Notes: generated by a model from the letters alone, not told the origin. 64,000 nt of DNA from Candidatus Oxydemutatoraceae bacterium (GCA_965212025.1 OZ243039.1:946180-1010179), one strand, 5' to 3'; counted from the stretch's first letter, positions 32,769-58,228 are shown. Numbers and translations are program-made.

Positions 32769-33910
32769 GACGGGACGGTGAGTCAGTGGGAGTGAATAGA
32801 CATTTGGCAGTGGGCGCTCTGGAAAGTTGGCGAAACACTCGCCTGAAGCGCCGACTGACCGTCTGGTGTCTGGGGGCGGCTTTGCTGCTCGTATTGATCC
32901 TGGCTTCTACCCCAGGCGCCGTGCCGCTGCCATTTGCCGAATTGTTTCATGCGCTCGTCGGGGATGGCGATTTTCAGGATGGGGAAGGTGTGCTCGCCAC
33001 GGTGAGTCAGTGGGAGTGAATAGACATTTGGCAGTGGGCGCTCTGGAAAGTTGGCGAAACACTCGCCTGAAGCGCCGACTGACCGTCTGGTGTCTGGGGG
33101 CGGCTTTGCTGCTCGTATTGATCCTGGCTTCTACCCTAGGCGCCGTGCCGCTGCCATTTGCCGAATTGTTTCATGCGCTCGTCGGGGATGGCGATCTTCA
33201 GGATGGGGAAGGTGTGCTCGGGACGGGACGGTGAGTCGGTGGGAGTGAATAGACATTTGGCAGTGGGCGCTCTGGAAAGTTGGCGAAACACTCGCCTGAA
33301 GCGCCGACTGACCGTCTGGTGTCTGGGGGCGGCTTTGCTGCTCGTATTGATCCTGGCTTCTACCCCAGGCGCCGTGCCGCTGCCATTTGCCGAATTGTTT
33401 CATGCGCTCGTCGGGGATGGCGATTTTCAGGACGGGGAAGGCGTGCTCGGGACGGGACGGTGAGTCAGTGGGAGTGAATAGACATTTGGCAGTGGGCGCT
33501 CTGGAAAGTTGGCGAAACACTCGCCTGAAGCGCCGACTGACCGTCTGGTGTCTGGGGGCGGCTTTGCTGCTCGTATTGATCCTGGCTTCTACCGTAGGCG
33601 CCGTGTCGCTGTCATTTGCCGAATTGTTTCATGCGCTCGTCGGGGATGGCGATTTTCAGGACGGGGAAGGCGTGCTCGGGACGGGACGGTGAGTCGGTGG
33701 GAGTGAATAGACATTTGGCAGTGGGCGCTCTGGAAAGTTGGCGAAACACTCGCCTGAAGCGCCGACTGACCGTCTGGTGTCTGGGGGCGGCTTTGCTGCT
33801 CGTATTGATCCTGGCTTCTACCCTAGGCGCCGTGCCGCTGCCATTTGCCGAATTGTTTCATGCGCTCGTCGGGGATGGCGATTTTCAGGACGGGGAAGGC
33901 GTGCTCGCCA
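32769..33910 (+). repeat. Five tandem copies (224/229-bp units) of the 5' end of the ABC permease gene
   Basis: ggtgagtc(a/g)gtgggagtgaatag occurs at 32777, 33001, 33230, 33459 and 33688. Only the last copy continues into the gene. Confidence 0.92.
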
Positions 33911-34782
33911 CTTATTCGTCTATTTGGTTCTCGTTGCGTCTGCCGCGCCTGCTGCTCGCAGCGGTGATCGGGATGGTGCTGGCGGGCAGTGGCGTGGTCA
34001 TGCAAAGCCTGTTTCAGAATCCGCTCGGTGATCCGGCGTTGTTGGGGGTGTCAGGAGGTGCCGCGATGGGCACGGTTCTTGTTTTGGCATTGGGCTGGCA
34101 TCAGGGTGGCGGTCTTTCATTTATGGTTTTGCCTTTTGCCGCCTTTATTGGGGGTCTGCTTGCCGTCCTTCTTGTCTACATGGTCGCGCGTCGTGTCGGC
34201 CGTACAGATATGGCGTCCTTGCTTTTGGGTGGTGTGGCGCTGAATGCGTTAACGGCGGCGGTAACCGGGGTGTTCATAGTTCGCTCCACTGACCCGGAAT
34301 TGCGCGGATTCATGTTTTGGATGTTGGGCGGTCTGGACGACGCTGATTGGTTCCGGCTTGGCGTGGTGTCGCTTTTTGCCTTTCCGGCGCTCGCGGTGAT
34401 TTTGGCGGCGGGCAAGGAGCTGGACGCCTTTGCCTTGGGAGAGCGCAACGCCTTCTGGCTGGGGTTGGCAGTTGAACGCTGGCACTTGGCGCTGGTCATC
34501 GCCGTTTCCGCTGCTGTCGGGATCAGCGTGGCATTTTGCGGAATCATCGGCTTTGTCGGTTTGCTGGCGCCGCACTTGGTGCGTGCCTTAATCGGGGCAA
34601 GTCATACGACCTTGTTGCCGGGGGCGTTGTTTCTGGGAGCCATCATTCTGGTTTTGGCGGATCTGGTTGCGCGCACCGCATTTTTGCCTGGAGAGGCACC
34701 GGTCGGTGTGATGACTGCTTTCCTGGGGGTTCCGTTTTTTCTGTTCCTGTTGCTTGCCAATCGGCAACGCGATTTCGCTTGA
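33697..34782 (+). CDS. Iron-chelate/heme ABC transporter permease (FecCD/HmuU/BtuC family)
   Basis: LRLPRLLLA, MQSLFQNPLGDP.LLGVSGGA, FWMLGGL, ALGERNA..LG and CGIIGFVGLLAPH. Confidence 0.9.
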   Translation: MGVNRHLAVGALESWRNTRLKRRLTVWCLGAALLLVLILASTLGAVPLPFAELFHALVGDGDFQDGEGVLATYSSIWFSLRLPRLLLAAVIGMVLAGSGVVMQSLFQNPLGDPALLGVSGGAAMGTVLVLALGWHQGGGLSFMVLPFAAFIGGLLAVLLVYMVARRVGRTDMASLLLGGVALNALTAAVTGVFIVRSTDPELRGFMFWMLGGLDDADWFRLGVVSLFAFPALAVILAAGKELDAFALGERNAFWLGLAVERWHLALVIAVSAAVGISVAFCGIIGFVGLLAPHLVRALIGASHTTLLPGALFLGAIILVLADLVARTAFLPGEAPVGVMTAFLGVPFFLFLLLANRQRDFA

Positions 34783-35573
34783 GCCTGGTTGCCGACTCGC
34801 TGAGTTACGGTGTCAGTGGGAAAACACTGATACGCGATTTCAGTATGGTTTTTCGTCGCGGGGAAATGGTCGCGGTGGTGGGGAACAATGGTTCGGGCAA
34901 ATCCACGCTGCTGTCTTTGCTGGCTGGGTGCCCGCTACCGGACACGGGTTCGATTCGCCTGGATGATCTGGAACTCAGCGCTTGGAAGGTCGCAGCTCTT
35001 GCGCGCCGCCGGGTCATGTTGCCGCAGGCCTTTGCCTTGAATTTTCCTTACTGCGTGGCTGACGTGGTAAAAATGGGGGGCGTTTCAGGCGTTTTGCAAC
35101 GGCGGGAAGACCAGGTTTTGTGCGAGGTCATGCACTGGTTTGACATTGGCCACTTGGCGAATGCGCGGTGGGACACGCTCTCCGGCGGTGAGCGGCAACG
35201 GACTCATCTTGCCCGGGCGGTGCTACAGGTCTTGACGGGAGACGCAGACGAATTTCGTTATTTATTGCTCGACGAACCAACGGCGTCTCTTGATCTCAAG
35301 TATGGCCATCGCCTGATGGAAGTGCTGGAAAAATTGTTGGAAGCAGGGGTGTGTGTGGTCTTGGTCAGCCATGACTTGGCACTGTTGCTGAACCGTGTGG
35401 ATCTTGTCGTCATGCTGGAGTCCGGAAAGGTGTATTTTCAGGGTCCGCCGAACGTCGCGCTTAATCCTGAAAAGATCGGTGCCGTTTTTGGGGTGGGTGC
35501 CACTTTGCTTCGTGAATCGGCGAGTGGGCAGGTGGCGTTGCTCACGGAGCCTCTATGCGGGAACCGTGCGTGA
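34779..35573 (+). CDS. Heme/iron-chelate ABC transporter ATP-binding protein (HmuV-like)
   Basis: GNNGSGKST, LARRRVMLPQ, LSGGERQR, LLLDEPTASLD and SHD. The TTG start overlaps the permease stop. Confidence 0.88.
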   Translation: MSLVADSLSYGVSGKTLIRDFSMVFRRGEMVAVVGNNGSGKSTLLSLLAGCPLPDTGSIRLDDLELSAWKVAALARRRVMLPQAFALNFPYCVADVVKMGGVSGVLQRREDQVLCEVMHWFDIGHLANARWDTLSGGERQRTHLARAVLQVLTGDADEFRYLLLDEPTASLDLKYGHRLMEVLEKLLEAGVCVVLVSHDLALLLNRVDLVVMLESGKVYFQGPPNVALNPEKIGAVFGVGATLLRESASGQVALLTEPLCGNRA

Positions 35574-35722
35574 TAGCATAGACGGCGACCGTTTGTTCCG
35601 GTGTGAAGCCTTTCAGTCAGAGCAACGTGTCCTGATTGGGATGGTGCGTGAAAGTGCGCTTCGGGTCTTTGGTTCTGAACCCGCATGGTGCCGGTTTCTA
35701 CTCACTGTAAAAAGCAGAATTT

Positions 35723-36724
35723 ATGGCTAATTTGAAAAAATCATTAAGCGCCACCTTAAGTAAAATAGAACAGGATTTTGGCAAAGGGGCGGTGATCCGT
35801 TTGGGCAGCACAGAAACCATGCGCGTTCCTGTGATTTCCACGGGCTCACTGTCTTTGGATGCCGCACTCGGCATTGGTGGGTTGCCTGTCAAACGCGTGG
35901 TGGAAATTTACGGACCGGAGTCTTCGGGGAAAACCACTCTGGCTTTGCACGTGATTGCGGAGTGCCAGAAACAGGGAGGCGTCGCTGCCTTTGTAGATGC
36001 CGAGCACGCCATGGATCCCATCTACGCAGAAAAGTTGGGGGTGAACGTGGCGGAATTGCTGGTTTCACAACCTGATAACGGGGAACAGGCTCTGGGGATT
36101 ACCGACATATTGGTGGCTTCCGGAGAGGTGCAGGTAGTGGTTCTGGATTCGGTGGCAGCCTTGACTCCACGCGCGGAAATAGAAGGGGAAATGGGTGACA
36201 GCCACATGGGCTTGCACGCCCGCCTGATGTCTCAGGCTCTGAGAAAACTGACTGCCAGCATCCAGCGTGGCAATGCTCTGGTGGTTTTCATCAACCAGAT
36301 CCGCATGAAAATCGGGGTCGTGTTCGGTAATCCGGAAACCACAACCGGCGGCAACGCCCTGAAGTTCTTTTCTTCGATGCGGCTGGAAATCCGGCGTCAG
36401 TCCACGATCAAGGATGGGGACAAAGTCCTTGGCAACGAAGTGAAGGTCAAGGTGGTCAAAAACAAGCTTGCTCCACCGTTTCGCGTCGCGCATTTTGAAA
36501 TCCGCTACGGCGAAGGCATCAATCGGGTGACAGAGCTGATCACCTTAGGGGTCGAAAATGATCTGTTGGAGAAATCCGGTTCCTGGTATTCCTACCAGGG
36601 TCAGAGGATAGGACAGGGGAAGGAAAATGCGCGTGAGTGGCTGAAAAGCCATCCTGAAGCCAGACAAGCACTGCGAGCGGCATTACGCGAAAAATTGTTG
36701 CCTCCTTCGAACGCGTCTAAGTAA
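35723..36724 (+). CDS. recA: Recombinase A
   Basis: [25 protein letters not shown] and [27 protein letters not shown]. Confidence 0.99.
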
Positions 36725-36765
36725 GGCGCGGTCGGTGGAAGCAGCTACTGCTCCCGGTTCAGATT

Positions 36766-37221
36766 GTGCAAAAGCAAGGCAACAGAGTCCCGGTTTATGA
36801 AAAAGCACTCGTTTTGCTTGGCCGGCGTGAACACGCGCGATCCGAGTTGTGTGGCAAGCTGCTGCACCGGCACTATTCCAAAGCGGAGATAGACAAGACC
36901 CTGGATTCTCTGGAAGCGGAGAATCTGCTTTCCGATCACCGCTTTTGCGAAATGTACATCCTGTCCAGAAACCAGAGAGGCTATGGCCCCTTGCGAATCT
37001 CGCGTGAACTGTGCGCGAAGCAGGTGGCGAAAGACATTGTGTCGGCGGCGATCGCGGGTTGCGAATGTGACTGGGAGGCCAGTGCCCGACGATGTTTTGC
37101 AAAACGCTATGGCGAAGGGTGCATGCGCGCCGGAGAACCACCTGCGAAGCAACAGCACTATCTTTTTCAGCGTGGCTTTCCGGGCGAGGTCATAGCGCGC
37201 GTCCTGGCGGACGAGGTGTGA
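36766..37221 (+). CDS. recX: Regulatory protein RecX
   Basis: LLGRREHARSEL, LLSDHRF, GYGPLRISREL and YLFQRGF; it follows recA. Confidence 0.9.
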   Translation: MQKQGNRVPVYEKALVLLGRREHARSELCGKLLHRHYSKAEIDKTLDSLEAENLLSDHRFCEMYILSRNQRGYGPLRISRELCAKQVAKDIVSAAIAGCECDWEASARRCFAKRYGEGCMRAGEPPAKQQHYLFQRGFPGEVIARVLADEV

Positions 37222-37232
37222 ACAAGCAGGCC

Positions 37233-39836
37233 ATGAATCAGACCGTCAGCAAAAGCTACGAAATTCGTTCGGCTTTTCTGGATTTCTTCCGGCAGCGTGG
37301 CCATCGGATTGTGCCTTCCAGTTCGCTCGTCCCGGCGGGTGACCCCAGTCTGCTGTTCACAAATTCCGGCATGGTGCAGTTCAAGGATATTTTTCTGGGC
37401 AATACGCAAAGCGAGTACCAGCGGGCGGCTAGCTGCCAGCGTTGTTTGCGCGCAGGTGGCAAACACAACGATTTGGAAAATGTGGGCTACACCCGAAGCC
37501 ATCACACTTTTTTCGAAATGCTCGGCAACTTCAGTTTCGGTGATTACTCCAAGCGGGAAGCGATTATCTATGCGTGGGAATTTTTGGGGGAAGTCTTGCG
37601 ATTGCCGCGCGAGAAATTGTGGGTCACGGTTTATGAAGACGACGATGAGGCGGCAGAAGTCTGGTCAAAGGAAACCGGAATTGACAGGCAACGCATTTCG
37701 TCTCTGGGAGAGGCGGACAATTTCTGGTCGATGGGAAAAACCGGACCCTGCGGCCCGTGCGCCGAGGTCTACTACGATCGCGGGCCAGAAGTGAAAGGAG
37801 GACCGCCGGGGTCGGGCGAAGATGGGGAACGCTTTGTTGAGATATGGAACCTGGTCTTCATGCTCTATGAGCGAGACGGGCAGAATCAATTACACGACTT
37901 GCCCCGTCAGTGCGTTGATACCGGGATGGGTCTGGAGCGTATTTCGGCAGTGATGCAAGGTGTGGAGTCCAATTTTGAAACCGATTTGTTCAACACGCTT
38001 CTGCGTCGGGTCGCTGAGCTTCTTTCTGTGGATGGGTTGGATCATCCTTCTTTGAAAGTGATTGCTGACCATGCCCGTGCCTGTACTTTTTTGATCGCAG
38101 ACGGGGTTTTTCCTGCCAACGACGGACACGGCTATGTTTTAAGGAGAATCATTCGTCGTGCCATCCGTCATGGGCATAAATTGGGCGCGCGGCGACCTTT
38201 TTTCCATCAGCTTGCCGGACAGGTGATTGAGGAGATGCATCTTGTCTATCCTGGGTTGCTTGAGCCGCGTGGCTTCGTGATGCGTGTGTTGGAGTCGGAG
38301 GAACTGCGTTTTGCCGAGACGCTGGACGAGGGCTTGAAAATTCTTGAGGCCGAGCTGCCGAGGCTGTCTGGTTCGGAAATTCCCGGAGAGTTTGTTTTCA
38401 AGCTTTTTGACACATACGGATTTCCGGCTGACCTGACTGCGGACATTGCCCGTGAAAAAAATCTGCAGGTCGATTTGGCTGGTTTTGAGACCGCCATGCA
38501 GGCGCAGCGTTCCCGCTCACGTGCGGCGGCCGGCTTTCGTGCTTCACGTAAATCAGATGCCCCGGCCATCTCGGTCAAAAGCACATTTTGCGGATACCAG
38601 TCGTCTGCCGGAACGGCGCGGCTGCTTGAGTTGTTCGTGGATGGCAATTCGGTCAACCGTCTCACGCAAAATCAGGATGCAGTTGTGGTGCTGGATGAGA
38701 CGCCGTTTTATGCGGAAGGCGGTGGGCAGCTTGGTGATACCGGTCATTTGGAAAACAGGAATGGTTTTTTTGCCGTTCGGGACACCCAAAAACAAGGTCA
38801 CGCGATCATGCATATCGGCACCTTGCAGAAAGGGACAATCCAGGTTGGCGAGACCCTGTTTGCCCGGATTGACCAGCAAAGACGGGCGAATTTGGCGTTA
38901 AACCATTCCGCAACGCATCTTTTGAACGCCGCGCTGCGGCAAGTTCTGGGTAAACACGTTACCCAGAAAGGTTCACTGGTTGCCCCGGATCGCCTGCGCT
39001 TCGATTTTTCCCATGACCGGCGCCTGTCAGAAGCTGAAAAGGCGGAAATAGAAGCTTTGGTGAATCGGGAAATCCGGCGGAACTCGGAAGTGCAGGTTGA
39101 ACTTTTGCCGCGCGAAGAGGCTATTGCCAAGGGGGCGATGGCGTTGTTCGGGGAGAAATACGAGGATGAAGTTCGAGTGCTGGGTATGGGGGAATTTTCC
39201 ATAGAGCTTTGCGGTGGCACACACGTAACGCATACCGGCGATATCGGGCTGTTCAAAATCATTTCCGACTCGGCCATTGCTGCCGGAGTCAGGCGTATAG
39301 AGGCACTGAGCGGGGAAACGGCGTGTCAGTACGTTGGTGAAGTGGAGCAGCAGTTGAAAGAGGTGGCACTATTGCTGAAAACGGAGCGTCCCATGCTCCT
39401 GGAAAAAGTTAAAAAACTGCTGGCCGAGCGTCGGGCATTGGCAAAGCGTCCGGACAAAGAACGCCACAGGAGCCTTTTTATTCCGGGAATGCTGAACTCA
39501 CATGACGTCAACGGGGTCAAAGTGTTAACGGGATACTTACCGGAGATGGATCGCCAGAACCTGCGCCAACAGGTGGATCTGTTAAAAGGCGATTTGGATC
39601 GCGGGGTGGTGGTGGTGGCGGGCGGTGAAAGTGGCAAAGTGCGCCTGGTGGTAGGGGTCACGCCAAATGCGGTCGGGCAAATTCACGCGGGTCAGCTGGC
39701 TTCCAGCCTGGCGGAAAAGCTGGGTGGCAAAGGGGGTGGTCGCGCCAATATGGCGGAAGCCGGTGGCGATAATCCTCACGCTATTGAGGACGTGCTTTCC
39801 CAGGTGCCCACTTGGGTTCGTGCCCGGACTTCCTGA
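37233..39836 (+). CDS. alaS: Alanine--tRNA ligase
   Basis: LLFTNSGMVQFK, HHTFFEMLGNFSFGDY, DTGMGLER, NHSATHLL and ELCGGTH. Confidence 0.98.
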   Translation: MNQTVSKSYEIRSAFLDFFRQRGHRIVPSSSLVPAGDPSLLFTNSGMVQFKDIFLGNTQSEYQRAASCQRCLRAGGKHNDLENVGYTRSHHTFFEMLGNFSFGDYSKREAIIYAWEFLGEVLRLPREKLWVTVYEDDDEAAEVWSKETGIDRQRISSLGEADNFWSMGKTGPCGPCAEVYYDRGPEVKGGPPGSGEDGERFVEIWNLVFMLYERDGQNQLHDLPRQCVDTGMGLERISAVMQGVESNFETDLFNTLLRRVAELLSVDGLDHPSLKVIADHARACTFLIADGVFPANDGHGYVLRRIIRRAIRHGHKLGARRPFFHQLAGQVIEEMHLVYPGLLEPRGFVMRVLESEELRFAETLDEGLKILEAELPRLSGSEIPGEFVFKLFDTYGFPADLTADIAREKNLQVDLAGFETAMQAQRSRSRAAAGFRASRKSDAPAISVKSTFCGYQSSAGTARLLELFVDGNSVNRLTQNQDAVVVLDETPFYAEGGGQLGDTGHLENRNGFFAVRDTQKQGHAIMHIGTLQKGTIQVGETLFARIDQQRRANLALNHSATHLLNAALRQVLGKHVTQKGSLVAPDRLRFDFSHDRRLSEAEKAEIEALVNREIRRNSEVQVELLPREEAIAKGAMALFGEKYEDEVRVLGMGEFSIELCGGTHVTHTGDIGLFKIISDSAIAAGVRRIEALSGETACQYVGEVEQQLKEVALLLKTERPMLLEKVKKLLAERRALAKRPDKERHRSLFIPGMLNSHDVNGVKVLTGYLPEMDRQNLRQQVDLLKGDLDRGVVVVAGGESGKVRLVVGVTPNAVGQIHAGQLASSLAEKLGGKGGGRANMAEAGGDNPHAIEDVLSQVPTWVRARTS

Positions 39837-39877
39837 ATTTTTCGTTCAGGTTTCTTTCCCGGTTTTAAGAGCTGTCA

Positions 39878-41095: not shown

Positions 41096-41127
41096 GAGGG
41101 ACTCTCCAGGGGAGCAATCGTTACGTC

Positions 41128-41574: not shown

Positions 41575-41602
41575 ATCGCGTAGCAAACGGTCTGTCCCGC
41601 GG

Positions 41603-45367: not shown

Positions 45368-45711
45368 GTGATGAGCCGGTCTGTAAGCCGGGTTCTGTGA
45401 TCGATAGTCATCCATCTAGAACGTACGTCACCGCACACCTCTTGCGGCCTACCTGAACCATTGCGCAGGCTACGCGGCTCTTTTTGGCCTTGCTCCAAGT
45501 GAGGTTTACCCTGCCGCGTATGTTGCCATCCGCGCGGTGCGCTCTTACCGCACCATTTCACCCTTACCAGCACGCGGCTGGCGGTTTGTTTTCTGTGGCA
45601 CTTTCTGTAGGCTCACGCCCCCCAGGTGTTACCTGGCACTTTGCCTTATGGAGCCCGGACTTTCCTCTGCCACTTAGGAGGGTGACAGCGACTATCCGAC
45701 CGACTCACCAC
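45368..45711 (-). ncRNA. rnpB: RNase P RNA (type A)
   Basis: The minus strand contains GAGGAAAGTCCGGGCTCC, AGTGCCACAGAAAA, GGTGCGGTAAGAGCGCACC, GGTAAACC..GGAGCAAG and ACAGAACCCGGCTTA. The P1 ends are complementary. Confidence 0.97.
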
Positions 45712-45715
45712 TTTC

Positions 45716-45721
45716 AGTATA
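45716..45721 (-). promoter_or_regulatory. Putative -10 box (TATACT) of rnpB
   Basis: TATACT lies a few bases upstream of the predicted rnpB 5' end; no clear -35 is visible. Confidence 0.5.
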
Positions 45722-45860
45722 GCCTGCCGGATGGCACGAAGCCGCCATCCGGAGACGAGGTTCCGGGCTTTTCTCTGCCCACGTACGATGTGGGCAGAGA
45801 CCATCCGTCCAACTTGTCACGTTGGTCTACATGTGCCGTGCAGTGCCAAGCTAGGCCAAG

Positions 45861-46703
45861 CCGACTTGACGATGGCGTGGTTGCCATCCGTGGGCATTCC
45901 CCCAGACACGCCACGCCTTTTCATCTCCCGGGGGCGGGCGGGAACCGGGCGTTCCCGGTCTTTGAATTTCGGGAAGCAGGCTGGGTGTTGCGAAAGGAAA
46001 GTGGAAACAGCGTTCGTGGCACGGCGTTTACTGCTCCGGGTGCTTCCGCAGAGGAGTTCAGGGATCTGCACCGACTCCGGCTGTTTTAGTCGGGGGCTTT
46101 CTCACCCATTGTAGCGGCGTAGCCCTGTCCGACTTGACGATGGCGTGAAGTTGCCATCCGTGGGCATTCCCCCAGACACGCCACGCCTTTTCATCCGGCC
46201 GGGGGGTGGCGGCGGGCGGGAACCGGGCGTTCCCGGGGGCGGGCGGGAACCCGTTCCCGGTCTTTGAATTTCGGGAAGCAGGCCGGGTGTTGCGAAAGGA
46301 AAGTGGAAACAGCGTTCGTGGCACGACGTTTACTGCTCCGGGTGCTTCCGCAGAGGAGTTCAGGGATCATGCACCGACCTTGGCTGTTTTAGTCGGGGGC
46401 TTCTTCACCCATTGTGGCGGCGTAGCCCTGTCCGACTTGACGATGGCGTGAAGTTGCCATCCGTGGGCAATCCCCCAGACACGCCACGTCCTTTTCATCT
46501 CCCGGGGGGTGGGCGGGAACCGGGCGTTCCTGGTCTTTGAATTTCGGGAAGCAGGCCGGGTGTTGCGAAAGGAAAGTGGAAACAGCGTTCGTGGCACGAC
46601 GTTTACTGCTCCGGGTGCTTCCGCAGGGGAGTTCAGGGATCTGCACCGACCTTGGCTGTTTTAGTCGGGGGCTTCTTCACCCATTGTGGCGGCGTAGCCC
46701 TGT
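45861..46703. repeat. Three tandem copies (268/303/272 bp) of the SPOR gene 3' end plus downstream DNA
   Basis: ccgacttgacgatggcgtg occurs at 45861, 46129 and 46432. Each unit ends with the reverse complement of the last ~13 SPOR codons (QGYAATMGEEAPD*, diverged in the first copy). Confidence 0.9.
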
Positions 46704-47194
46704 AGCCTGAGACGACGCAGTGTTTCCCGAGCCTGTTGGTGGGTATAGGGGCCGAGGAACACCCGAAACTGCTTTTTGCCTTCGTGAGGAATGGTTTTGG
46801 TGAAGGCTTCAAGACCCAGTTCTGTTACGCTTTTTTTTAATTCTTCCGCATCTGCGCGCAGGGCAAAGATACGCGATTGCAAGTGGTACGTTTTTCCCGG
46901 GTTTTGGCTTGGCGGATCATCAGAACCTCCGGAGACCAGTTTTTCACGGCTCTTGAGTAAGGTGAAATAAGTGTAGCGGTTCTGTTGCGTTTCCTGGCTG
47001 GTCGCTGTTGGTTCTTTGTTGGCAGGCGGCGAAGGAGGAAGGGGTGTTGCCAGATTTCTGTTCGCGTTTATCTCATAGAGGAGGAGGGATAGCGCCGCGA
47101 AGCTGGCAAGCCCGATGTACAGCACCCACCGTGTCGGTTTTTTCGGTGCCCTGTTCGGTTCATAGTTCAGGTGTTTGTAGTCCCTGTCTGCCAT
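46661..47194 (-). CDS. SPOR-domain cell-division protein (FtsN-like)
   Basis: MADRDYK, one TM helix, YTYFTLL and SPOR-like YHLQ...FRVFLGPY; it follows argS. Confidence 0.8.
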   Translation of the reverse strand: MADRDYKHLNYEPNRAPKKPTRWVLYIGLASFAALSLLLYEINANRNLATPLPPSPPANKEPTATSQETQQNRYTYFTLLKSREKLVSGGSDDPPSQNPGKTYHLQSRIFALRADAEELKKSVTELGLEAFTKTIPHEGKKQFRVFLGPYTHQQARETLRRLRLQGYAATMGEEAPD

Positions 47195-49181: not shown

Positions 49182-50111
49182 TCAGCTTTTTCGGAATTCA
49201 GCGCCTTCTTTTTTGACCGGTGCCATGTCCAGCTGTGTGATTCCGAATGCCACCAGACAAGAGCCGGCTACGTAGACCGAAGAATAGGTGCCGACAATGA
49301 CTCCGACTATCATGGCAATGGTGAAGCCCTGAATCACGGGGCCGCCCAGAACCAGCAAGGCGAACAGCACCAAGAGCGTTGTCAATGAAGTCACGATGGT
49401 GCGCGCCAGCGTCTGGTTGATCGACCGGTTGATGATTCGGGTGGTTTCCAGGCGACGGGAAGCCATGAGATTTTCCCGCACACGGTCATAGACCACGATG
49501 GTGTCATTCAGCGAGTAACCCACGACCGCGAGCAAGGCCGCCAACACCGTCAGGTCGCTCTCGATACCGGTGACGGAGAAAAAGCCGATGGTCAGCAGCA
49601 CGTCATGCGCCAAAGCAATGATGGCGCCAAAAGCAAAGCGGTATTCAAAGCGAAAGGCCACGTAAATGAGGATGCCTAACAAGGCGTACAGCAGTGCCAG
49701 CCCGCCGTCCTCGCGCAGTTCCTCCCCGACTTGGGGACCAACGTATTCAACGCGCCTTATTTTCAGTTCGCCCAGATCTTCCAAGGCTGCGATGACCAGC
49801 GAACTGATTTCGGCACGCGCAGTTTCGGCGCGCAAAGGAATGCGCACGAGCAAGCTTTTGGCGGTGCCAAAGTACTGTACTTTCGCGTCTGAAAGTTCTG
49901 TTTCTTCCAGAACGCGCCGCACGTCATCGAGCACCACGGCTTGCTTGTACTCGACTTCAAGCAGCGTGCCGCCGGTGAAGTCAATGCCAAAGTTCAATCC
50001 CCGAAAAACGAGTGATGTCAACGCGATCAGGATCAGTACAGCTGACACGCGGAGTGCCAGCTTGCGCTGCTGCATGAAGTTAAAACGGGTGTCTTTTAAC
50101 AGGCTGATCAT
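49182..50111 (-). CDS. secF: Protein translocase subunit SecF
   Basis: GLNFGIDFTGGT, VGPQVGEEL, FRFEYRF, HDV and GYSLNDTIVVYDRVRE. Confidence 0.97.
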   Translation of the reverse strand: MISLLKDTRFNFMQQRKLALRVSAVLILIALTSLVFRGLNFGIDFTGGTLLEVEYKQAVVLDDVRRVLEETELSDAKVQYFGTAKSLLVRIPLRAETARAEISSLVIAALEDLGELKIRRVEYVGPQVGEELREDGGLALLYALLGILIYVAFRFEYRFAFGAIIALAHDVLLTIGFFSVTGIESDLTVLAALLAVVGYSLNDTIVVYDRVRENLMASRRLETTRIINRSINQTLARTIVTSLTTLLVLFALLVLGGPVIQGFTIAMIVGVIVGTYSSVYVAGSCLVAFGITQLDMAPVKKEGAEFRKS

Positions 50112-51970
50112 ATTGCCAGGCGAACCTCTTTTTTCCTGCCGTAAATCAGGTTGGCAATGGCGCGTGTGCCCATAATGGCAGTGAACATGGAGCACAGAAT
50201 GCCAATGGACAGCGTGACGGCAAAGCCTTTAATCGGGCCGGTGCCAAAAGTGAAAAGCACCACCGCCGCAATCAGGGTGGTCAGGTTCGCGTCTGCAATC
50301 GTTGACAGAGCCTGTCGGTAGCCAGAGTCGATGCTGACTTGTGGTGTATGACCTGCCTTCAGGTGCTCGCGTATGCGCTCAAAAATCAAGACATTGGCAT
50401 CCACGGCCATGCCGATTGTCAAAACGATCCCGACTATGCCCGGCAAGGTCAATGTGGCTCCCGGGATCAGGGACATGATGGCGATGATGAGCACGATGTT
50501 GGCGAGCAAAGCCAGATTTGCCAGCATGCCGAAGGTTCGGTAATAGATCCCCATGAACAGAACGACCAGCAGGAAAGCCATCAAGATGGAACGCTGTCCC
50601 TGATCAATATTGTCCTGCCCCAGACTCGGCCCAACCGTGCGCTCTTCCACGATCTGCATGGGTGCCGCCAGCGCTCCGGAGCGCAACAGCAAAGAGAGTT
50701 TGCGCGCCTCGCGGGTACTGTCCAGTCCGGTAATCTGGAAGCGCTTGCCGAGCTGTTCCTGGATCCGCGCGACGTTGATGACCTCTTCCACGGTTTTTAG
50801 GCGCCGCTTCGTTTCTCCGCTCGCGGTTCTCACTTTTTCGCTTTTGTTTTCAATGAACACGACCGCCATCATCCGCTTGACGTTTTCGCCGGTTACCTTG
50901 CTGAACAACCGTGCTCCCTTTCCGTTCAGGGTGATGTGCACCGCCGGCCGGCCGGTCTCGGAATCTAGGCCGGAGGAGGCTCCTGTGATGTATTCCCCGC
51001 TCAGCATCACGCGGCGTTTGAGCAATATCGGGTCGCCGTTGCGTTCGTAATACAGTTTGGTGTTACGGGGTATCACGTTGGTGTTAGCCGCACGCTGCGA
51101 GTCTTCATTTTCCGCCACCAGACGAAACTCCAGTGTCGCGGTAGCCCCCAGAATGTCTTTCGCCCGAGCCGTGTCCTGCACGCCCGGCAATTGCACGACG
51201 ATCCGGTCGCGCCCTTGGCGGGTCACGGACGGTTCGGCGACCCCCAACTCGTTCACTCGCTTGCGCAAAGTCACGACATTTTGCTGCACCGCGAAATCAG
51301 TCAGTTCCTTAATCGCGGTCTTGCTCAGCCGGAAAACCGCCTTCAACGGGTCCGGATTTTTTTCCACGACTGTCAGCACGGTTGGATTCTCGGTTTTGAC
51401 CAACTCTACAGCCGCGTCCCGTTCCTCCTGGCTGGCAAAAGAAAAAGAGATCGCGTCTGCGCTCACCCCGGTTTTCCGATAGCGCAGCTTCTCCCCGCGA
51501 AACAGCGTACGCAGTTCGTTGTGATATTCCCGTATTGCCTTCTCTCTGGCTGCTTCAACGTCTACTTCCAGCAGAAAGTGGACACCGCCACGCAAGTCCA
51601 GACCCAGGTTCATGGGCGATGCGTTGAGCGAACGCAGCCACCCCGGAGTGGTTGTCGCCAGATTCAACGCCACAATGTAGCCAGGGGGAGCCCAGTCTCT
51701 TAACAGGGCGGAGGCCAGCAGTTGCGTGTCTGCGTTGTGGAAGCGGATCACCACGCCCTGAGGCGTTTCTTCCAGGGACTTCCAGGCGACTTTTTCTTTG
51801 TCGAGCGTTCCCGTGATTTGGTTCACGATGGTGCCCCCGATGGTGCCGTCAACCACGTTGGAAACCTGTATCGCCGGATCTTCGGGATAAATGTTCGGCA
51901 ATGCGTAGACGACTGCAAGCAGCAGCACGGACACAATCAGGCAGTGTTTCCAGGCGGGATAGTGGTTCAT
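50108..51970 (-). CDS. secD: Protein translocase subunit SecD
   Basis: LGLDLRGGVHF, RVNELGVAEP, VQLPGVQD, VGPSLG and GMAVDANVLIFERIRE. Confidence 0.98.
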   Translation of the reverse strand: MNHYPAWKHCLIVSVLLLAVVYALPNIYPEDPAIQVSNVVDGTIGGTIVNQITGTLDKEKVAWKSLEETPQGVVIRFHNADTQLLASALLRDWAPPGYIVALNLATTTPGWLRSLNASPMNLGLDLRGGVHFLLEVDVEAAREKAIREYHNELRTLFRGEKLRYRKTGVSADAISFSFASQEERDAAVELVKTENPTVLTVVEKNPDPLKAVFRLSKTAIKELTDFAVQQNVVTLRKRVNELGVAEPSVTRQGRDRIVVQLPGVQDTARAKDILGATATLEFRLVAENEDSQRAANTNVIPRNTKLYYERNGDPILLKRRVMLSGEYITGASSGLDSETGRPAVHITLNGKGARLFSKVTGENVKRMMAVVFIENKSEKVRTASGETKRRLKTVEEVINVARIQEQLGKRFQITGLDSTREARKLSLLLRSGALAAPMQIVEERTVGPSLGQDNIDQGQRSILMAFLLVVLFMGIYYRTFGMLANLALLANIVLIIAIMSLIPGATLTLPGIVGIVLTIGMAVDANVLIFERIREHLKAGHTPQVSIDSGYRQALSTIADANLTTLIAAVVLFTFGTGPIKGFAVTLSIGILCSMFTAIMGTRAIANLIYGRKKEVRLAI

Positions 51971-51976
51971 GGGTGT

Positions 51977-52306
51977 TTAGTCTTTCAGCGTCCCTTTTGG
52001 CATCAGTTGCGACACGGCCTGCTTTTGCACTTTCACGATTACATTGTTTGCCAGCTCAAGCTTCAGGAAAGTCTCGCCAACTTCTGTCACGCGACCCAGC
52101 AAGCCACCACTGGTGACGACTTCATCATTACGCGACAGGGAAGAAATCATCTGCTTTTGTTCCTTGCTGCGCTTGCTTTGGGGGCGGATCACCAGCAAGT
52201 AAAGGATGAGAAAAAATCCGCCCAACAAAAGCAGGGTTTCCATGCCACCGCCCGTTGCCTCAGGGTTGGGTGTTTGCGCCACGGCGTTTTCAATAAAAAT
52301 TGCCAT
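51977..52306 (-). CDS. yajC: Preprotein translocase subunit YajC
   Basis: YLLVIRPQSKR, DEVVTSGGLLG and PKGTLK; it precedes secD. Confidence 0.95.
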   Translation of the reverse strand: MAIFIENAVAQTPNPEATGGGMETLLLLGGFFLILYLLVIRPQSKRSKEQKQMISSLSRNDEVVTSGGLLGRVTEVGETFLKLELANNVIVKVQKQAVSQLMPKGTLKD

Positions 52307-52570
52307 CAGTTTCTTACCTCTTATGTGTGAATATTCCGGGGTTTCCGTGTGTCTTATACCGCCTCCAGGTCTTTACCTTAAGCGGTGGCCAAGCCAGCCA
52401 TTTGGGACGAATGATTATGGCACAAATCAGGCATTGCCAAACGCGGTTTAGCAGCAGGCGAAACGAAGCCAAGCCACGTTTAAAGAGCCTGTGGCTTCCT
52501 TAGCCGTGTTCCGCCGCCCGCGTCTTGAGGGGCAGGTACCCGTGCAGATATCAGGACGGCATTATTGCCA

Positions 52571-53884
52571 TCAAGGCACCACCTGTTGTTCATTGGAAGT
52601 TTTTTCCTCCAAAGCCGGGGTCACTTCCAGCGCGTCATCTGTTTCTGTTTCTGGCAAAGACTTTTTCCCGCGCACGCCCAGCTTCTCCAGTTTTTTTGCC
52701 CGGCTCACCAGACTGCCACGCCCTGTCACCAGTCTGTTCATGACGGTTTCATGACTTTTGAGGCTTCGTTCCAGGTGTTTCCCCAGATCTTCTGTTGACT
52801 CCAGGACACCATTGACCTTGTCACAGAAAGACGCGGCCTGTCGCGTAATTTCCTGGGTATTTTCCTGTTGCCTGTGGGTGCGCCAGAGGTTTTCAATGAT
52901 GCGCAGAGTCGGCATCAAGGTATTCAGTGTCACCAGTCCAACTCGCATTTTCAGGGAATTATCGTATAGGGAAGGGTCTTCGTTCAGTGCCGCTGCCAGC
53001 GCGTTTTCCAGGGGAATAAACATGAGGACGAAATCCAGCGAGTGGACTTGCGGCAGATCCTGGTAGTTTTTCGCGGCCAAGTCTTTGACGTGTTTGCGCA
53101 TGGCTGCCGAGTGCGCTTTCAGACACCGGGCTTTGTCGGCCTCGTCTTTTGCTTCTTCCGCGTTCAGGTAGTCGACAATGTTCAGCTTTGAATCAATGAT
53201 GACCTGGCGGTTCGCCGGCAATTCGATCACCACATCCGGGCGCAGGAGACTGCCGTCCTCGTCGTGATAGCTTTTTTGCGTGTGATAATTTATGCCCTCC
53301 TTCAGTCCTGCGGCTTCCAGGACGCGTCCGAGCTGCACTTCTCCCCAACTGCCTCGAACCTGAGGGGAACGGCGCAAGGCGCTTGTGAGATCCTGCGCTT
53401 CATGAGCCAGGGATTCGCTCATTTTCTGTACGTTTTTCAAACCCTCCGCCAGAGTCGTGCGTTCCCGGATGGTTTCCAGCCCTTGCCTTTCCAGTTGTTC
53501 GCGAAACTGCTGGAATGCTTCATTCAACGGCTTTACGGTGGCATTGAGTTCTGTTTTTCCACGCTCAGCGTAACGGCCGTCAAGCGCTTTCATGCTTTTC
53601 AGGGCCGCCTGTTCCAGCCGAGCGTCCAGCGACTGTTCGAGCTCCTTATAAACCTCCATGCTGCTTTCCAGCCGCGCACACTCTTCGCGCTGCGACTGAT
53701 GCGCTGCACGCGCTTTTTCGAGTTCCGACTGCTCATGGCGAAGCTGTGACTCCTGTTTCTGGCACAAGGCTTCCGCCAGCTCGCGCCTTTGTTTTTCCAT
53801 CTTGCGCCTGTGCATGGACAAGACCGTCCCGACCGCGCCGCCGACAGCGAGCCCAAAGAGTAAGTAAATCCATTCCATTGTCAT
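52571..53884 (-). CDS. rmuC: DNA recombination protein RmuC
   Basis: N-terminal TM helix and coiled coil, then RGSWGEVQL..VLEAAGL, RPDVVIELP, IIDSK and DFVLMFIP. Confidence 0.93.
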   Translation of the reverse strand: MTMEWIYLLFGLAVGGAVGTVLSMHRRKMEKQRRELAEALCQKQESQLRHEQSELEKARAAHQSQREECARLESSMEVYKELEQSLDARLEQAALKSMKALDGRYAERGKTELNATVKPLNEAFQQFREQLERQGLETIRERTTLAEGLKNVQKMSESLAHEAQDLTSALRRSPQVRGSWGEVQLGRVLEAAGLKEGINYHTQKSYHDEDGSLLRPDVVIELPANRQVIIDSKLNIVDYLNAEEAKDEADKARCLKAHSAAMRKHVKDLAAKNYQDLPQVHSLDFVLMFIPLENALAAALNEDPSLYDNSLKMRVGLVTLNTLMPTLRIIENLWRTHRQQENTQEITRQAASFCDKVNGVLESTEDLGKHLERSLKSHETVMNRLVTGRGSLVSRAKKLEKLGVRGKKSLPETETDDALEVTPALEEKTSNEQQVVP

Positions 53885-54061
53885 GTCTCCAAAAAATAAG
53901 ATATCGGCCATTTTGCACTTTATGCCGGCTTTGGTTGCCAAACAGCAGACAGGCAGAGATTCTGTTGCAGTACTTTCTGTGATGGCCACGGTTTTGTGCC
54001 CCTGCCAGTGCTCTTCGCGGCGACCGTATTTTCAGGATTGTGGCCGCAGTCTGCCTGACCA

Positions 54062-54221
54062 TTCGCCTGCGCCACGCCGTGTCAGGCGGCCACGCCAACA
54101 GTCAGCGTATCTTATCGGCAGGAGCGGACTGTTCGCCGCTTGTTCGCCTGCGCCACGCCGTGTCAGGCGGCCACGCCACCGGTCAGTGCTTATCAGGCAG
54201 GAGCGGACTGTTCGCCGCTTG
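54062..54221. repeat. ~80-bp tandem duplication spanning the queG stop codon
   Basis: ttcgcctgcgccacgccgtgtcaggcggccacgcca...ggcaggagcggactgttcgccgcttg occurs at 54062 and 54143. Confidence 0.9.
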
Positions 54222-55263
54222 TTTGCCTGTTCTGCCTGAGCAGTGCCCAGCGGACGTGTTCACGTACCAGAGCCGAGGGATGGTTCACCCTGCTGCGTAA
54301 AGCCTGAGCCACCTTTTCGTCTCGTGGTGCGTTGCCAAGTCCGACGGCAAGATTTCGAAGCCAACGTTCGTAGCCAAGCCGGCTTAAGGCACTTCCTCGG
54401 GTTCGGATGGAAAAGTTTTTTTCATCCCAGTCCCAGAGGGAAAGCAAGGTGGCAACATCCAGTCCGTTGCGCACGTGGAAAGCGGTTTCTGCGCTGTTTT
54501 TCGCGAAACGGTTCCAGGGGCAGATGGTCTGGCAGTCGTCGCAGCCGAAAACGCGGTTGCCGATCAGCGGTCTCAGCGCTTCCGGAATACTCCCCTTGTG
54601 TTCGATCGTGAGGTAGGCGATGCAGCGATTTGCGTCCAACTGGTAGGGAGCAATGATGGCTCGTGTTGGACACACGTCCAGGCAGCTCCGGCAGGTACCA
54701 CAGTGATTTTTTGCGGGACGGGAAACGGGGAGCGGCAGATTGGTATAGAGCTCGCCGAGAAAGAACCACGAGCCTTCTCGGCGATTGATCACCACGGTGT
54801 TTTTCCCAATCCAGCCCAATCCCGCCTGTTCGGCGATGGCTTTTTCCATGACCGGGGCGCTGTCGCAAAAAGCTCGGTACTGAAAGCTTCCGGCGGCCTG
54901 AGTGATTTTTTCGGCGAGCTTCTGCAGGCGTTTGCGAATCAGCTTGTGGTAATCACCGCCGAGTGCGTAGCGCGCGATCCGGGCTTGGCCGGAAGCGTCA
55001 TCGTCGAGCCCATAACCGGCAACCTCCGGCGGTAAATAATTCATACGGACTGAAATGATGGTCAGAGTTCCCGGGATCAGTTGTGCTGGCCGCGTACGCT
55101 TGCTGCCGTGTTTCTCCATGAAGTCCATGTCTCCATGCATACCCTCGCGCAACCAGTTCAACAGACGGCTTTCGTGTCCGCCAATGTCGGTGTGGCTGAT
55201 GCCGGTCTGTTGAAAGCCCAGATCGGTTGCCCAACGCTTGATGCGTCTCGCCAGGCTGTGCAT
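54193..55263 (-). CDS. queG: tRNA epoxyqueuosine reductase
   Basis: IARYALGGDYH, DSAPVMEK, GLGWIGKN, CGTCRSCLDVCPT, RCIAYLTIE and FGCDDCQTICPWN. Confidence 0.96.
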   Translation of the reverse strand: MHSLARRIKRWATDLGFQQTGISHTDIGGHESRLLNWLREGMHGDMDFMEKHGSKRTRPAQLIPGTLTIISVRMNYLPPEVAGYGLDDDASGQARIARYALGGDYHKLIRKRLQKLAEKITQAAGSFQYRAFCDSAPVMEKAIAEQAGLGWIGKNTVVINRREGSWFFLGELYTNLPLPVSRPAKNHCGTCRSCLDVCPTRAIIAPYQLDANRCIAYLTIEHKGSIPEALRPLIGNRVFGCDDCQTICPWNRFAKNSAETAFHVRNGLDVATLLSLWDWDEKNFSIRTRGSALSRLGYERWLRNLAVGLGNAPRDEKVAQALRSRVNHPSALVREHVRWALLRQNRQTSGEQSAPA

Positions 55264-55505
55264 TTTTGTTGCCTCAGGCAGGGTGTCGGCTGGTGCGCTG
55301 CTTTGGGTGCCGTGGGGTTTCAGGGTGCGAATAGTGTGTGTCAAAGTGGAAGCGGGAAATGGTTTTTGCCGTGGTACTTGCCGCGGTACTTACGTTGGAG
55401 AATTTTACAGATTTCTGATCTGTAGCAGCATCCGGGATGTTCTGTCCCCAGCCAAAACCATGGTGTCTGATTTGACCACCTTGGCAGGGGCGTTATTATG
55501 ACCTC

Positions 55506-56978
55506 ATGCTTCCCCTGTACACCTCGCAGCAAAGCAAAGTGCTTGACAAAATCATCATGGATACCGGCTTGGTCGGTGGTGTCGAATTGATGGGACGTGC
55601 CGCTCGTGCGTGTTTTGACGAGATCGTGAGACGTTGGCCTGAAGCCAGAAAAATCACGATTTTCGCAGGTCCGGGCAACAACGGAGGAGATGGATACTTG
55701 CTGGGGGCTTTGTTGCTGAGGGAAAACAAATACGAGCCAAAGCTGGTGCCATGCACGGCAAAGAAGCCTTTGTCAGGTGATGCTTCTGTGGCGCGGGAGC
55801 GATTTTTGGCAGAGGGAGGAACGGAGCTGCCTGCGGGAGCCATGCCGCACGCAGACGTGTTGGTAGACGCAATGTTCGGCACGGGTCTGAAGCGGTCTCT
55901 GGACGCTGATACATTATCGATAGTGAGCCATATCAATGGTGCGCAAGCTCGCGTACTGGCCGTGGACGTGCCAAGCGGGCTGGACGCAGATACCGGTGCC
56001 ATGATGCCGCTGGCTGTGCGAGCAGATGCCACCGTCACCTTCATTAGCCGCAAACAGGGGCTGTACACCGCGCAAGGGCGAGACTGCTGCGGAGAAATCG
56101 TTTTCGCTCCGCTCGGAGAGTGGCAGGAGGTGCTTGCCGAGGAGGTTCCGGCGGCGCAACTGTTTTCCTACCGTGATGTCTGTGGGCATCTGCGGCCTCG
56201 CCGCCGGGATGCTCACAAAGGCAATCTGGGTCACGTTCTGGTCATAGGCGGAAATTACGGTATGGCGGGGGCGGCACGGCTTTGTGCTGAGGCGGCACTG
56301 CGCAGCGGTGCCGGATTGGTGAGCGTTGCCACGCGTCCTGGGCATGCGGCCATGATTGCCGCCAATTGTCCGCCCCTGATGGTGCACGGAGTATCCGGCA
56401 AGAAAGAGGCGTTGCGGTTGGCAGAGCGTGCCGACGTCTTGGCTGTGGGGCCCGGGCTGGGTCAAGACGATTGGGCAATGGAGATGATGTCTGTGGCGCT
56501 GGACGCGAGACAATGGCGAGTGATGGATGCCGACGCTCTGAATTTGTTGGCCGCCGAGCCACAGCATTCGCAGTGTTGGGTGTTGACGCCGCACCCTGGC
56601 GAGGCCGGACGGATGTTGGGAATTTCAGGATCCGAAGTACAACAGGATCGTTTTGTGGCGCTGGCACGGTTGCGCGAACGCTATGGCGGGGTATGTATCC
56701 TCAAAGGCTCCGGAACGCTGATTGCCGCAAATGACATGCCTTGTCCTGCCGTGGTTCTTCCTGGCAATCCCGGCATGGCGACTGCGGGTGCCGGCGATGT
56801 CTTGACTGGTGTGGTGGCGGGGTTGCTTGCCCAAGGCTTGAAGCCAGAGGTGGCGGCACAAACGGCGGTATGTGTGCACGCCCAGGCCGGTGATGATGCC
56901 GCGCAGGACGGCGAGCGCGGCATGTTGGCGACTGACATTCTGGCCGCTTTGCGCAGACGTCTGAACTGTTTGCCATGA
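55506..56978 (+). CDS. nnr: Bifunctional NAD(P)H-hydrate epimerase/dehydratase
   Basis: GPGNNGGDG, DAMFGTGL, DVPSGL, HKG, GPGLG, DADALN, TPHPGEA and GNPGMATAGAGDVLTG. Confidence 0.96.
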   Translation: MLPLYTSQQSKVLDKIIMDTGLVGGVELMGRAARACFDEIVRRWPEARKITIFAGPGNNGGDGYLLGALLLRENKYEPKLVPCTAKKPLSGDASVARERFLAEGGTELPAGAMPHADVLVDAMFGTGLKRSLDADTLSIVSHINGAQARVLAVDVPSGLDADTGAMMPLAVRADATVTFISRKQGLYTAQGRDCCGEIVFAPLGEWQEVLAEEVPAAQLFSYRDVCGHLRPRRRDAHKGNLGHVLVIGGNYGMAGAARLCAEAALRSGAGLVSVATRPGHAAMIAANCPPLMVHGVSGKKEALRLAERADVLAVGPGLGQDDWAMEMMSVALDARQWRVMDADALNLLAAEPQHSQCWVLTPHPGEAGRMLGISGSEVQQDRFVALARLRERYGGVCILKGSGTLIAANDMPCPAVVLPGNPGMATAGAGDVLTGVVAGLLAQGLKPEVAAQTAVCVHAQAGDDAAQDGERGMLATDILAALRRRLNCLP

Positions 56979-58228
56979 CTGTGCATGAAACGGGTGAAGG
57001 GCAGCTGTCTGTTGAAACACTCGAGAGCGAGGAAACCGAAGCTTTGGCTGGCACTCTTGCCGCTTTGGGCAGACGTCTGAACTGTTTGCCATGACTGTGC
57101 ATGAAACGGGTGAAGGGCAGCTGTCTGTTGAAACACGCGAGAGCGAGGAAACCGAAGCTTTGGCTGGCACTCTTGCCGCTTTGCGCGGACGTCTGAACTG
57201 TTTGCCATGACTGTGCATGGAACGGGTGAAGGGCAGCTGTCTGTTGAAACACGCGAGAGCGAAGAAACCGAAGCTTTGGCTGGCACTCTTGCCGCTTGGG
57301 CGGACGTCTGAACTGTTTGCCATGACTGTGCATGAAACGGGTGAAGGGCAGCTGTCTGTTGAAACACGCGAGAGCGAGGAAACCGAAGCTTTGGCTGGCA
57401 CTCTTGCCGCTTGGGCGGACGTCTGAACTGTTTGCCATGACTGTGCATGGAACGGGTGAAGGGCAGCTGTCTGTTGAAACACGCGAGAGCGAGGAAACCG
57501 AAGCTTTGGCTGGCACTCTTGCCGCTTGGGCAGACGTCTGAACTGCTTGCCATGACTGTGCATGGAACGGGTGAAGGGCAGCTGTCTGTTGAAACACGCG
57601 AGAGCGAGGAAACCGAAGCTTTGGCTGGCACTCTTGCCGCTTGGGCGGACGTCTGAACTGTTTGCCATGACTGTGCATGGAAACGGGTGAAGGGCAGCTG
57701 TCTGTTGAAACACGCGAGAGCGAGGAAACCGAAGCTTTGGCTGGCACTCTTACCGCTTTGCGCGGACGTCTGAACTGCTTGCCATGACTGTGCATGAAAC
57801 GGGTGAAGGGCAGCTGTCTGTTGAAACACGCGAGAGCGAGGAAACCGAAGCTTTGGCTGGCACTCTTGCCGCCTGGGCGGACGTCTGAACTGCTTGCCAT
57901 GACTGTGCATGGAACGGGTGAGGGGCAGCTGTCTGTTGAAACACGCGAGAGCGAGGAAACCGAAGCTTTGGCTGGCACTCTTGCCGCCTGGGCGGACGTC
58001 TGAACTGCTTGCCATGACTGTGCATGGAACGGGTGAGGGGCAGCTGTCTGTTGAAACACGCGAGAGCGAGGAAACCGAAGCTTTGGCTGGCACTCTTGCC
58101 GCTTGGGCGGACGTCTGAACTGCTTGCCATGACTGTGCATGGAACGGGTGAGGGGCAGCTGTCTGTTGAAACACGCGAGAGCGAGGAAACCGAAGCTTTG
58201 GCTGGCACTCTTGCCGCTTGGGCAGACG
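56938..58228 (+). repeat. Tandem array of 115-117-bp units containing the nnr end / tsaE start (11 ATG copies)
   Basis: atgactgtgcat occurs at 56975, 57091, 57207, 57322, 57437, 57552, 57667, 57784, 57899, 58014 and 58129. Confidence 0.95.

Follow-up and report, generated by a model that had tools for sequence, protein, structure and literature searches.

Why should a compact bacterial genome carry, beside unrelated and intact genes, several head-to-tail copies of the ends of those same genes? The question is raised by a stretch of 64,000 nucleotides (hereafter the window) from Candidatus Oxydemutatoraceae bacterium (GCA_965212025.1 OZ243039.1:946180-1010179), a gammaproteobacterial sponge symbiont, in which a first-pass annotation noticed tandem arrays lying across start or stop codons between positions 32,769 and 58,228. 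Two explanations were then offered, either a very high rate of tandem duplication with survival only at gene edges, or a general copy-number rheostat acting on start and terminator regions. Our analysis favors the first of them, and the arrays are probably by-products without function, left by local tandem duplications that arise often and are then filtered by selection.

The largest array of the region lies on the + strand at the boundary between nnr and tsaE (56932..58228), with 11.2 units of 115-117 bp, reported by Tandem Repeats Finder (TRF) as 115 bp x11.2 with a 97% match. Each unit takes in the nnr stop codon with the ~12 codons before it and the first ~27 codons of tsaE. The overlap of the nnr stop with the tsaE start (ATGA) is therefore present 11 times, with ATGs from 56975 to 58129. 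According to Pfam both genes are intact: nnr, encoding the NAD(P)HX epimerase/dehydratase (55506..56978, +), has a stop that overlaps the first ATG of the array, and tsaE (58129..58671, +; 180 aa) opens at the last one, the only ATG that leads into TsaE. The ten decoy ATGs, from 56975 to 58014, open mini open reading frames (ORFs) of 39, 39, 34, 34, 34, 34, 7, 34, 34 and 34 codons. Copies differ by substitutions as well as in unit length (115, 116 or 117 nt), and their junction lies in an imperfect direct repeat of ~18 nt common to the end of nnr and to tsaE codons ~27-33. Adjoining units share variants in blocks, and TRF finds higher-order periods of 462 bp in the window and 577 bp in the genome, all of which fits stepwise unequal exchange.

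A similar design is seen at the start of a FecCD-family ABC permease gene, where five units (one of 224 bp, then four of 229 bp) occupy positions 32775..33914 of the + strand; TRF gives 32767-33907, 229 bp x5.0 and a 96% match, and a copy-by-copy alignment gives spacings of 224, 229, 229 and 229 bp. The unit consists of a leader of ~17 nt followed by the first ~70 codons of the permease. The period breaks the reading frame, being no multiple of 3; the four upstream copies (starts at 32792, 33016, 33245 and 33474) are therefore decoy ORFs of 72-75 codons and the last copy alone, with the real GTG start at 33703, reaches the intact gene of 359 aa (33703..34782, +; Pfam PF01032, profile positions 2-310 of 311). 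Two junction types occur in this array, the first junction being unlike the other three.

The other two arrays of the region sit at gene 3′ ends on the - strand. The end of a SPOR-domain gene is present in three copies (45880..46755), with units of ~303 and ~270 bp that hold the last 14 codons, the stop and a trailer of ~250 nt with a G+C-rich, terminator-like hairpin in every unit. TRF counts only 1.9 copies of 303 bp here (45926-46512, 94% match) because the third copy, which carries the real stop, is more diverged. The intact gene (46661..47194, -; 177 aa, Pfam) ends in the first copy in the direction of the gene, and directly downstream of the array lies the RNase P RNA gene rnpB (45368..45707, -; RF00010, 315.8 bits), the only known RNA family found in window positions 17000-60000. 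A + strand ORF called at 45484-46089 is spurious. The end of queG, coding for epoxyqueuosine reductase (54193..55344, -; intact by Pfam), is found in two copies of 81 bp at 54062..54229 (TRF 81 bp x2.1, 91% match), each with the last ~12 codons, the stop and a trailer. TRF scores of the window arrays range from 274 to 2360, far past chance. The copy numbers first described at these four places (five, three, two and eleven), the preservation of an intact gene at each, and the occurrence of substitutions between copies (nnr/tsaE) and of more than one junction type (permease) are thus borne out by TRF and alignments.

The first-pass annotation had also listed arrays at a NUDIX gene end and at the start of a major facilitator (MFS) gene earlier in the window. 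Those fragments do exist, but within a more complex structure: a higher-order tandem triplication of ~3.2-3.8 kb units (17571..25885, +; TRF and alignments), each of which contains, besides a Sel1-repeat gene, a fragment of the MFS start and a nested array of 214 or 218 bp. The MFS-start fragments, 230 nt long, lie at 18578-18807 and 21815-22044, and TRF places the nested arrays at 19038-19907 (214 bp x4) and 22251-23553 (218 bp x6). The source of the nested unit is found at 15248-15405, beginning ~20 nt before the NUDIX stop, and the real MFS gene (~25631-27373) comes after the triplication.

Are gene ends, then, a special target of these duplications? The whole genome (G000) is a single contig of 1,918,571 bp with 52% G+C, in which TRF rows were merged into arrays and those with a period of at least 50 bp were kept; genes were called with a crude combination of ORFs and codon usage (1585 calls, 1526 of them mostly outside arrays; ~84% coding). 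The 94 arrays obtained make up 4.5% of the genome. Thirty-three were scored inside a called gene, 32 of which repeat in frame (period a multiple of 3) and are protein repeats, and the lone frame-breaking case actually lies between the EIIA and HPr genes according to Pfam. Three more are terminal protein repeats, 20 are in spacers (the SPOR array is scored there owing to its TRF bounds), and 38 include a gene end and extend past it by one unit or more (24 with a stop only, 6 with a start only, and 8 with a start plus a stop). The last eight all lie between two distinct complete genes, such as kdsA/eno, pqqB/pqqC or cysS/hisI, with no split gene among them.

Against a null in which 200,000 segments matched in size were placed at random, frame-breaking arrays are excluded from gene interiors: of the 32 arrays whose period is no multiple of 3, 0 lie inside a gene, versus 67% by random placement (binomial p about 2e-14, computed on 1/32). 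This result supports the idea of a high duplication rate with survival at gene edges. Null segments that do not fall inside genes lie wholly in spacers in 22.6% of cases, and in 77% they reach a gene end or enclose an entire gene; 38 of the 58 non-genic arrays (66%) cross a gene end, a proportion on the low side of the null (p = 0.04). Gene ends thus show no excess of arrays and are not specially targeted, and the enrichment over start and stop codons that the first-pass annotation proposed to look for does not appear. With a median spacer of only 69 bp, a duplication of 100-500 bp outside gene interiors is nearly bound to cross a gene end.

Which end is crossed does depart from the null (chi-square p = 1.7e-4), with 24 stop-only arrays against 13.4 expected, 6 start-only against 14.9, and 8 start-plus-stop against 14.6. 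In the same line, arrays are borne by 20 of 179 convergent spacers, by 3 of 179 divergent ones and by 33 of 1167 co-directional ones. This is the direction expected if shifting a gene away from its promoter, or from a coupled upstream gene, carries a higher cost.

The structure of the arrays also tells how they could arise. Their units are local sequence: in an all-against-all BLAST of the 58 non-genic units, matches occur only between neighbouring arrays, and no single sequence family recurs at many loci as it does with REP/BIME elements or miniature inverted-repeat transposable elements. A mobile element or a common motif is not involved. Of the 42 arrays whose match is 90% or higher, 28 have a copy number within 0.1 of an integer (p = 7e-11), which fits the clean duplication of one segment followed by the gain and loss of whole units. 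At five clean young two-copy duplications (97-100% identity) the junction ends share 0, 0, 0, 4 and 5 nt, and the junction of an array at the end of rmuC in a relative of the same genus, G001, has an imperfect direct repeat of 13 nt with 12 matching. Variable sites in the extra copies spread over codon positions 1, 2 and 3 as 81, 76 and 90 (p = 0.54; 26 coding pieces from 20 arrays), an even distribution which indicates that selection does not maintain the extra fragments for coding. Within 8 kb at G000:C1:638747-646559 there are three very young duplications of two copies each (322, 182 and 201 bp, 97-100% identical); they sit at the end of pqqE and at the pqqB/pqqC boundary, in and beside the pqq operon.

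From the junctions, it could be proposed that a stretch of ~80-550 bp is initially duplicated head to tail through illegitimate recombination or replication template switching, with little or no homology (0-5 nt) or with the help of an imperfect direct repeat of 13-19 nt. Once two copies are in place, slippage between them or homologous exchange out of register would change the number of units and partly homogenise them, as the structure of the arrays suggests. Duplications inside genes break the gene and are purged, the step that the statistics above show, and the survivors are those in spacers or across gene ends, where one whole gene remains: the one that includes the first copy when the 3′ end is amplified, or the last copy when it is the 5′ end. 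Duplications at 5′ ends and in spacers with divergent promoters would be more harmful, so that 3′ ends and convergent spacers come to dominate, and the extra gene pieces would decay as junk. Such a two-stage course resembles the duplication-amplification process of Escherichia coli and Salmonella, in which an initial duplication, a rare event at short or absent homology, is followed by frequent copy-number change through homologous exchange. Classical amplifications cover kilobases to hundreds of kilobases, are unstable and are kept only under selection, unlike the units of 80-550 bp of G000, which persist without evident selection. The arrays also differ from contingency loci, where units of 1-9 nt in a promoter or reading frame switch a gene on and off, since the units here measure 81-303 bp and one gene stays intact whatever the copy number. 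Accretion of integrative elements or cassettes at attachment (att) sites of gene 3′ ends, which places cargo genes between the repeated ends and has an integrase close by, was considered and rejected as well, because units abut head to tail, consist of local sequence only and carry no cargo, and 5′ ends are amplified too.

Further insight comes from close relatives. Syntenic stretches of 60 kb were compared in two genomes of the same genus, G001 (~89% identical) and G002 (~80%), which hold 11 and 5 arrays, respectively. At the nnr/tsaE boundary, 115 bp x11.2 in G000, both relatives show a single copy, and the span of a tsaE query is 1154 and 1164 bp shorter in these two same-genus genomes, equal to ~10 units. 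The single-copy state of tsaE also appears in a contig of run X4 (90% likeness), in which 56998 is joined directly to 58153 and 1154 bp are skipped. The permease start, 229 bp x5 in G000, is 194 bp x6.9 with a different right-hand junction in G001 and single-copy in G002. The stop of rmuC, single-copy in G000, is amplified in G001 (250 bp x4.1) and in G002 (296 bp x3.2, with a junction unlike that of G001). Finally, the rnpB-SPOR spacer holds ~300 bp x3 in G000, two SPOR-end copies 2,067 bp apart in G001, and 220 bp x about 17 in G002. Further arrays are found in G001 at the MFS/OmpA, DUF4396/mobB, TraB/rnpB, argS/secF, rmuC/queG and queG/nnr boundaries, and in G002 at thiF/TraB and queG/nnr. 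Arrays thus come and go, and form anew at the same places, over the time in which species diverge.

The phenomenon extends beyond the genus. In samples of 200 kb, with the same threshold of at least 50 bp for the period, genomes from five other genera of the family show 14 arrays (G003, 9 with a period not a multiple of 3), 27 (G004, 12), 10 (G005, 4), 6 (G006, 3) and 16 (G007, 14), whereas three genomes of the sister family have 0 (G019), 1 (G024) and 4 (G022), none of which has a frame-breaking period. This amounts to 3-13.5 arrays per 100 kb in the five genera versus 0, 0.5 and 2 in the sister-family genomes; G000 itself, counted over its whole genome, has 4.9 per 100 kb, and 1.67 per 100 kb with a period not a multiple of 3. 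A high array load characterizes the symbiont family as a whole and is not confined to one locus. The sample of G007 (C1:100001-300000) contains many short arrays with periods of 98 and 107 bp in a dozen places, which look like a dispersed repeat family rather than local duplications.

An alternative is that the arrays are selected, the number of units tuning the neighbouring gene. Decoy starts and mini-ORFs could damp the translation of a coupled downstream gene (from nnr to tsaE, or from EIIA to HPr), and stacked hairpins could strengthen termination or insulation. Every tsaE unit indeed keeps an ATG and an in-frame stop placed 13 nt before the next ATG or overlapping it, nine of the ten decoy tsaE ORFs measure 34-39 codons, the hairpin is kept in every SPOR unit, and arrays have formed independently at some boundaries in two species. 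A rheostat of this type nonetheless seems quite unlikely to us: gene starts are under-represented rather than enriched, the straddling of gene ends does not rise above the neutral filter, the extra copies lack any bias in codon position, and neither sister species has the tsaE array. Moreover, at 96-97% identity the copies are too young for the retained ATGs to carry meaning, and neither start array has a promoter-like site, terminator-like and promoter-like counts in the regions equalling the shuffled expectation. The general rheostat of the first-pass annotation is not upheld on these grounds. Its boldest form, in which the family would use gene-end minisatellites as a heritable and reversible dial, recurring independently at the same boundaries of sister species, where the number of decoy-start/mini-ORF and terminator units sets the expression of the neighbour, we judge very unlikely. 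Another view is that the bias lies in the origin of the duplications and not in their survival, for instance through stalling or template switching at terminators or under head-on transcription. Such mechanistic hot spots would agree with convergent spacers bearing arrays 7 times more often than divergent ones, and with the recurrence of independent events at the same gene ends in sister species. Array units, on the other hand, fold no better than stop-centred controls (z of -0.29 versus -0.04, p = 0.16, 52 versus 52), which led us to reject hairpin-rich units as the driver, no gradient of arrays from origin to terminus is seen, and selection against promoter disturbance predicts the same bias. 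On balance hot spots are an unlikely explanation of the pattern.

It could also be argued that the arrays are created by the assembler or by read stutter, the more so as the evidence on this point comes from short-word contigs and not from raw spanning reads. The copies differ by substitutions and have a higher-order structure, and near-integer copy numbers and the multiple-of-3 rule are biological signatures. Like arrays are present in the single-contig genomes of two sister species and of four of the five other genera (that of G004 being in three contigs). The contigs of run X1 break off on either side of the tsaE array (56982 and 58179), and the depth inside reaches 277 against ~53 in the flanks, as expected of a genuine multi-copy repeat, a pattern that does not in itself measure copy number. 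The array-specific junction was not found in the metagenome contigs of the independent assemblies scanned. The differences among copies, the near-integer structure, the multiple-of-3 rule and the recurrence of such arrays in independent genomes make an artefact extremely improbable.

Local duplication filtered by selection remains the reading that we prefer, and several observations weigh against it. Three of the four array-bearing spacers of G000 also bear arrays in G001, where 9 of 29 spacers do so and 1.2 would be expected (hypergeometric p about 0.08, computed by hand). Such sharing of boundaries with differing junctions, as at rmuC between G001 and G002 and at the permease between G000 and G001, speaks for tolerant sites, hot spots or selection at particular ends rather than for uniform random hits. 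Of the 61 arrays not scored inside genes, 30 have periods that are multiples of 3, above the expected third, an excess that decayed protein repeats explain only in part. In addition, gene classes rest on a crude home-made caller, and copy numbers come from the assembly, not from spanning reads. Lastly, no repair defect among the genes tested accounts for a raised duplication rate. Genes mutS, mutL, recA, recJ, xseA, a uvrD/rep-type helicase, dnaQ, a recB/addA-like gene, ruvA, ruvC and recG are all present with open frames, and an account based on a lost repair gene is inapplicable because mismatch repair, recombination and proofreading genes are apparently intact.

The loss of repair genes was examined for 15 genes in G000 and its relatives and rejected as the cause of the load, no loss separating the array-rich family from the array-poor one. 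Only in G004 was recJ not found. No recQ or Ku gene turned up in the five genomes tested, some of them array-poor, and sbcB was seen only in G024 of the sister family; these three do not distinguish the array-rich family from the array-poor G019. The load could be due to a subtler change in a replication protein that raises the rate, or to weak purging in small symbiont populations. Repair genes carry arrays of their own in several genomes: there are two extra mutS ends in G002 (C1:128683-129063), an extra uvrD end in G004 (C3:133724-133882), and, in G001, extra dnaQ starts, a duplicated ruvC-end/ruvA-start and an extra recG end (C1:1632811-1634332, C1:983586-983830 and C1:2075368-2075712).

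Does any known genome behave in this way? Work on Ehrlichia ruminantium by Collins et al. (2005, PNAS) and Frutos et al. (2006, J Bacteriol) reportedly describes repeat units of about 150 bp, and most pseudogenes of this bacterium are said to be truncated gene fragments associated with repeats. The first-pass annotation knew of no named system with this architecture, which is too strong a statement, since E. ruminantium offers a described precedent: it has abundant tandem repeats of ~100-500 bp with variable copy number in non-coding DNA (PMC10710844, PMC3287509), where they expand and contract (PMC10710844). In a published TRF table, E. ruminantium has 201 rows and 6.3%, and E. coli 89 rows and 0.38% (PMC3287509). 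Under the same basic mode of TRF, G000 gives 262 rows and 99,637 bp, that is 5.2% when summed and 3.76% when merged, with a mean period of 108 bp. Both genomes, small as they are, thus have an exceptional density of long-period repeats (5.2% versus 6.3%; PMC3287509), with hundreds of TRF rows at a match of ~90% that make up 4-6% of the sequence, located outside genes or at gene ends, where they leave truncated gene fragments, and in both the copy number differs among close relatives (in ours, 11/1/1 at tsaE, 5/6.9/1 at the permease and 1/4.1/3.2 at rmuC for G000, G001 and G002). Unlike that AT-rich rickettsial tick-borne pathogen, the sponge symbiont does not have a genome of low coding density, with ~0.84 coding by crude calls compared with the ~64% given for E. 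ruminantium (PMC10710844). Beyond the precedent, the trait is shown here across a whole family, and the gene-end position has been tested against a null. The arrays of G000 are tandem-repeat plasticity of the E. ruminantium type, an ordinary mechanism at an unusual scale.

Two other bacteria invite comparison. Portiera, the whitefly endosymbiont, shows genome instability after the loss of dnaQ, with 111 tandem repeats in a strain from Bemisia tabaci (PMC7821994). As in our case, the spacers of this symbiont lineage have expanded and repeats are numerous; in contrast to it, dnaQ is present and open in G000, and the repeats of Portiera are described as mainly microsatellites, in an extensively rearranged genome (PMC7821994). 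The intergenic variable-number tandem repeats of Wolbachia, and bacterial minisatellites in general, are similar in their spacer units of ~100-140 bp and in a copy number that differs between close strains, but Wolbachia is described with only few such loci per genome (PMC3287509), versus ~60 arrays outside genes in G000, most of them with a gene end. A narrow literature search found no description of a tandem-repeat trait in sponge symbionts. With these results, a family of marine sponge symbionts is added to the very few bacteria whose repeat loads resemble that of E. ruminantium, and a simple testable rule emerges: duplications that break no gene stay, and so pile up across the gene ends of a compact genome. 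They also reveal a hazard for annotation, as the arrays produce false small ORFs and wrong start calls; in the window alone the permease has four decoy starts and tsaE ten. The same arrays would be good markers for strain typing.

Some other features of the window deserve mention. Two adjoining genes code for pentapeptide-repeat proteins of 802 and 618 aa (1874-4282 and 5216-7072, +), and three Sel1-repeat genes lie at 17.3-25.5 kb; both are classes of eukaryote-like repeat proteins typical of host-associated bacteria. The gene for ribosomal protein S6, rpsF (28534-29451, +), carries a C-terminal extension of ~190 aa with ~15 tandem copies of the eight-residue SKAKPEAE, seen in the DNA as a 24-bp period at 28928-29285, the usual S6 having ~100-135 aa. 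At 60200-61942 (+), a gene with a helix-turn-helix (HTH) motif and an M78 peptidase domain (ImmA/IrrE-like) is followed by a DUF4411 gene, forming a toxin-antitoxin-like pair, and this block is tandemly duplicated in G001 with a period of ~1.66 kb. Finally, a gene of the CesT family, similar to type III secretion chaperones, is found at 62215-62877 (+) in this otherwise reduced-looking genome.

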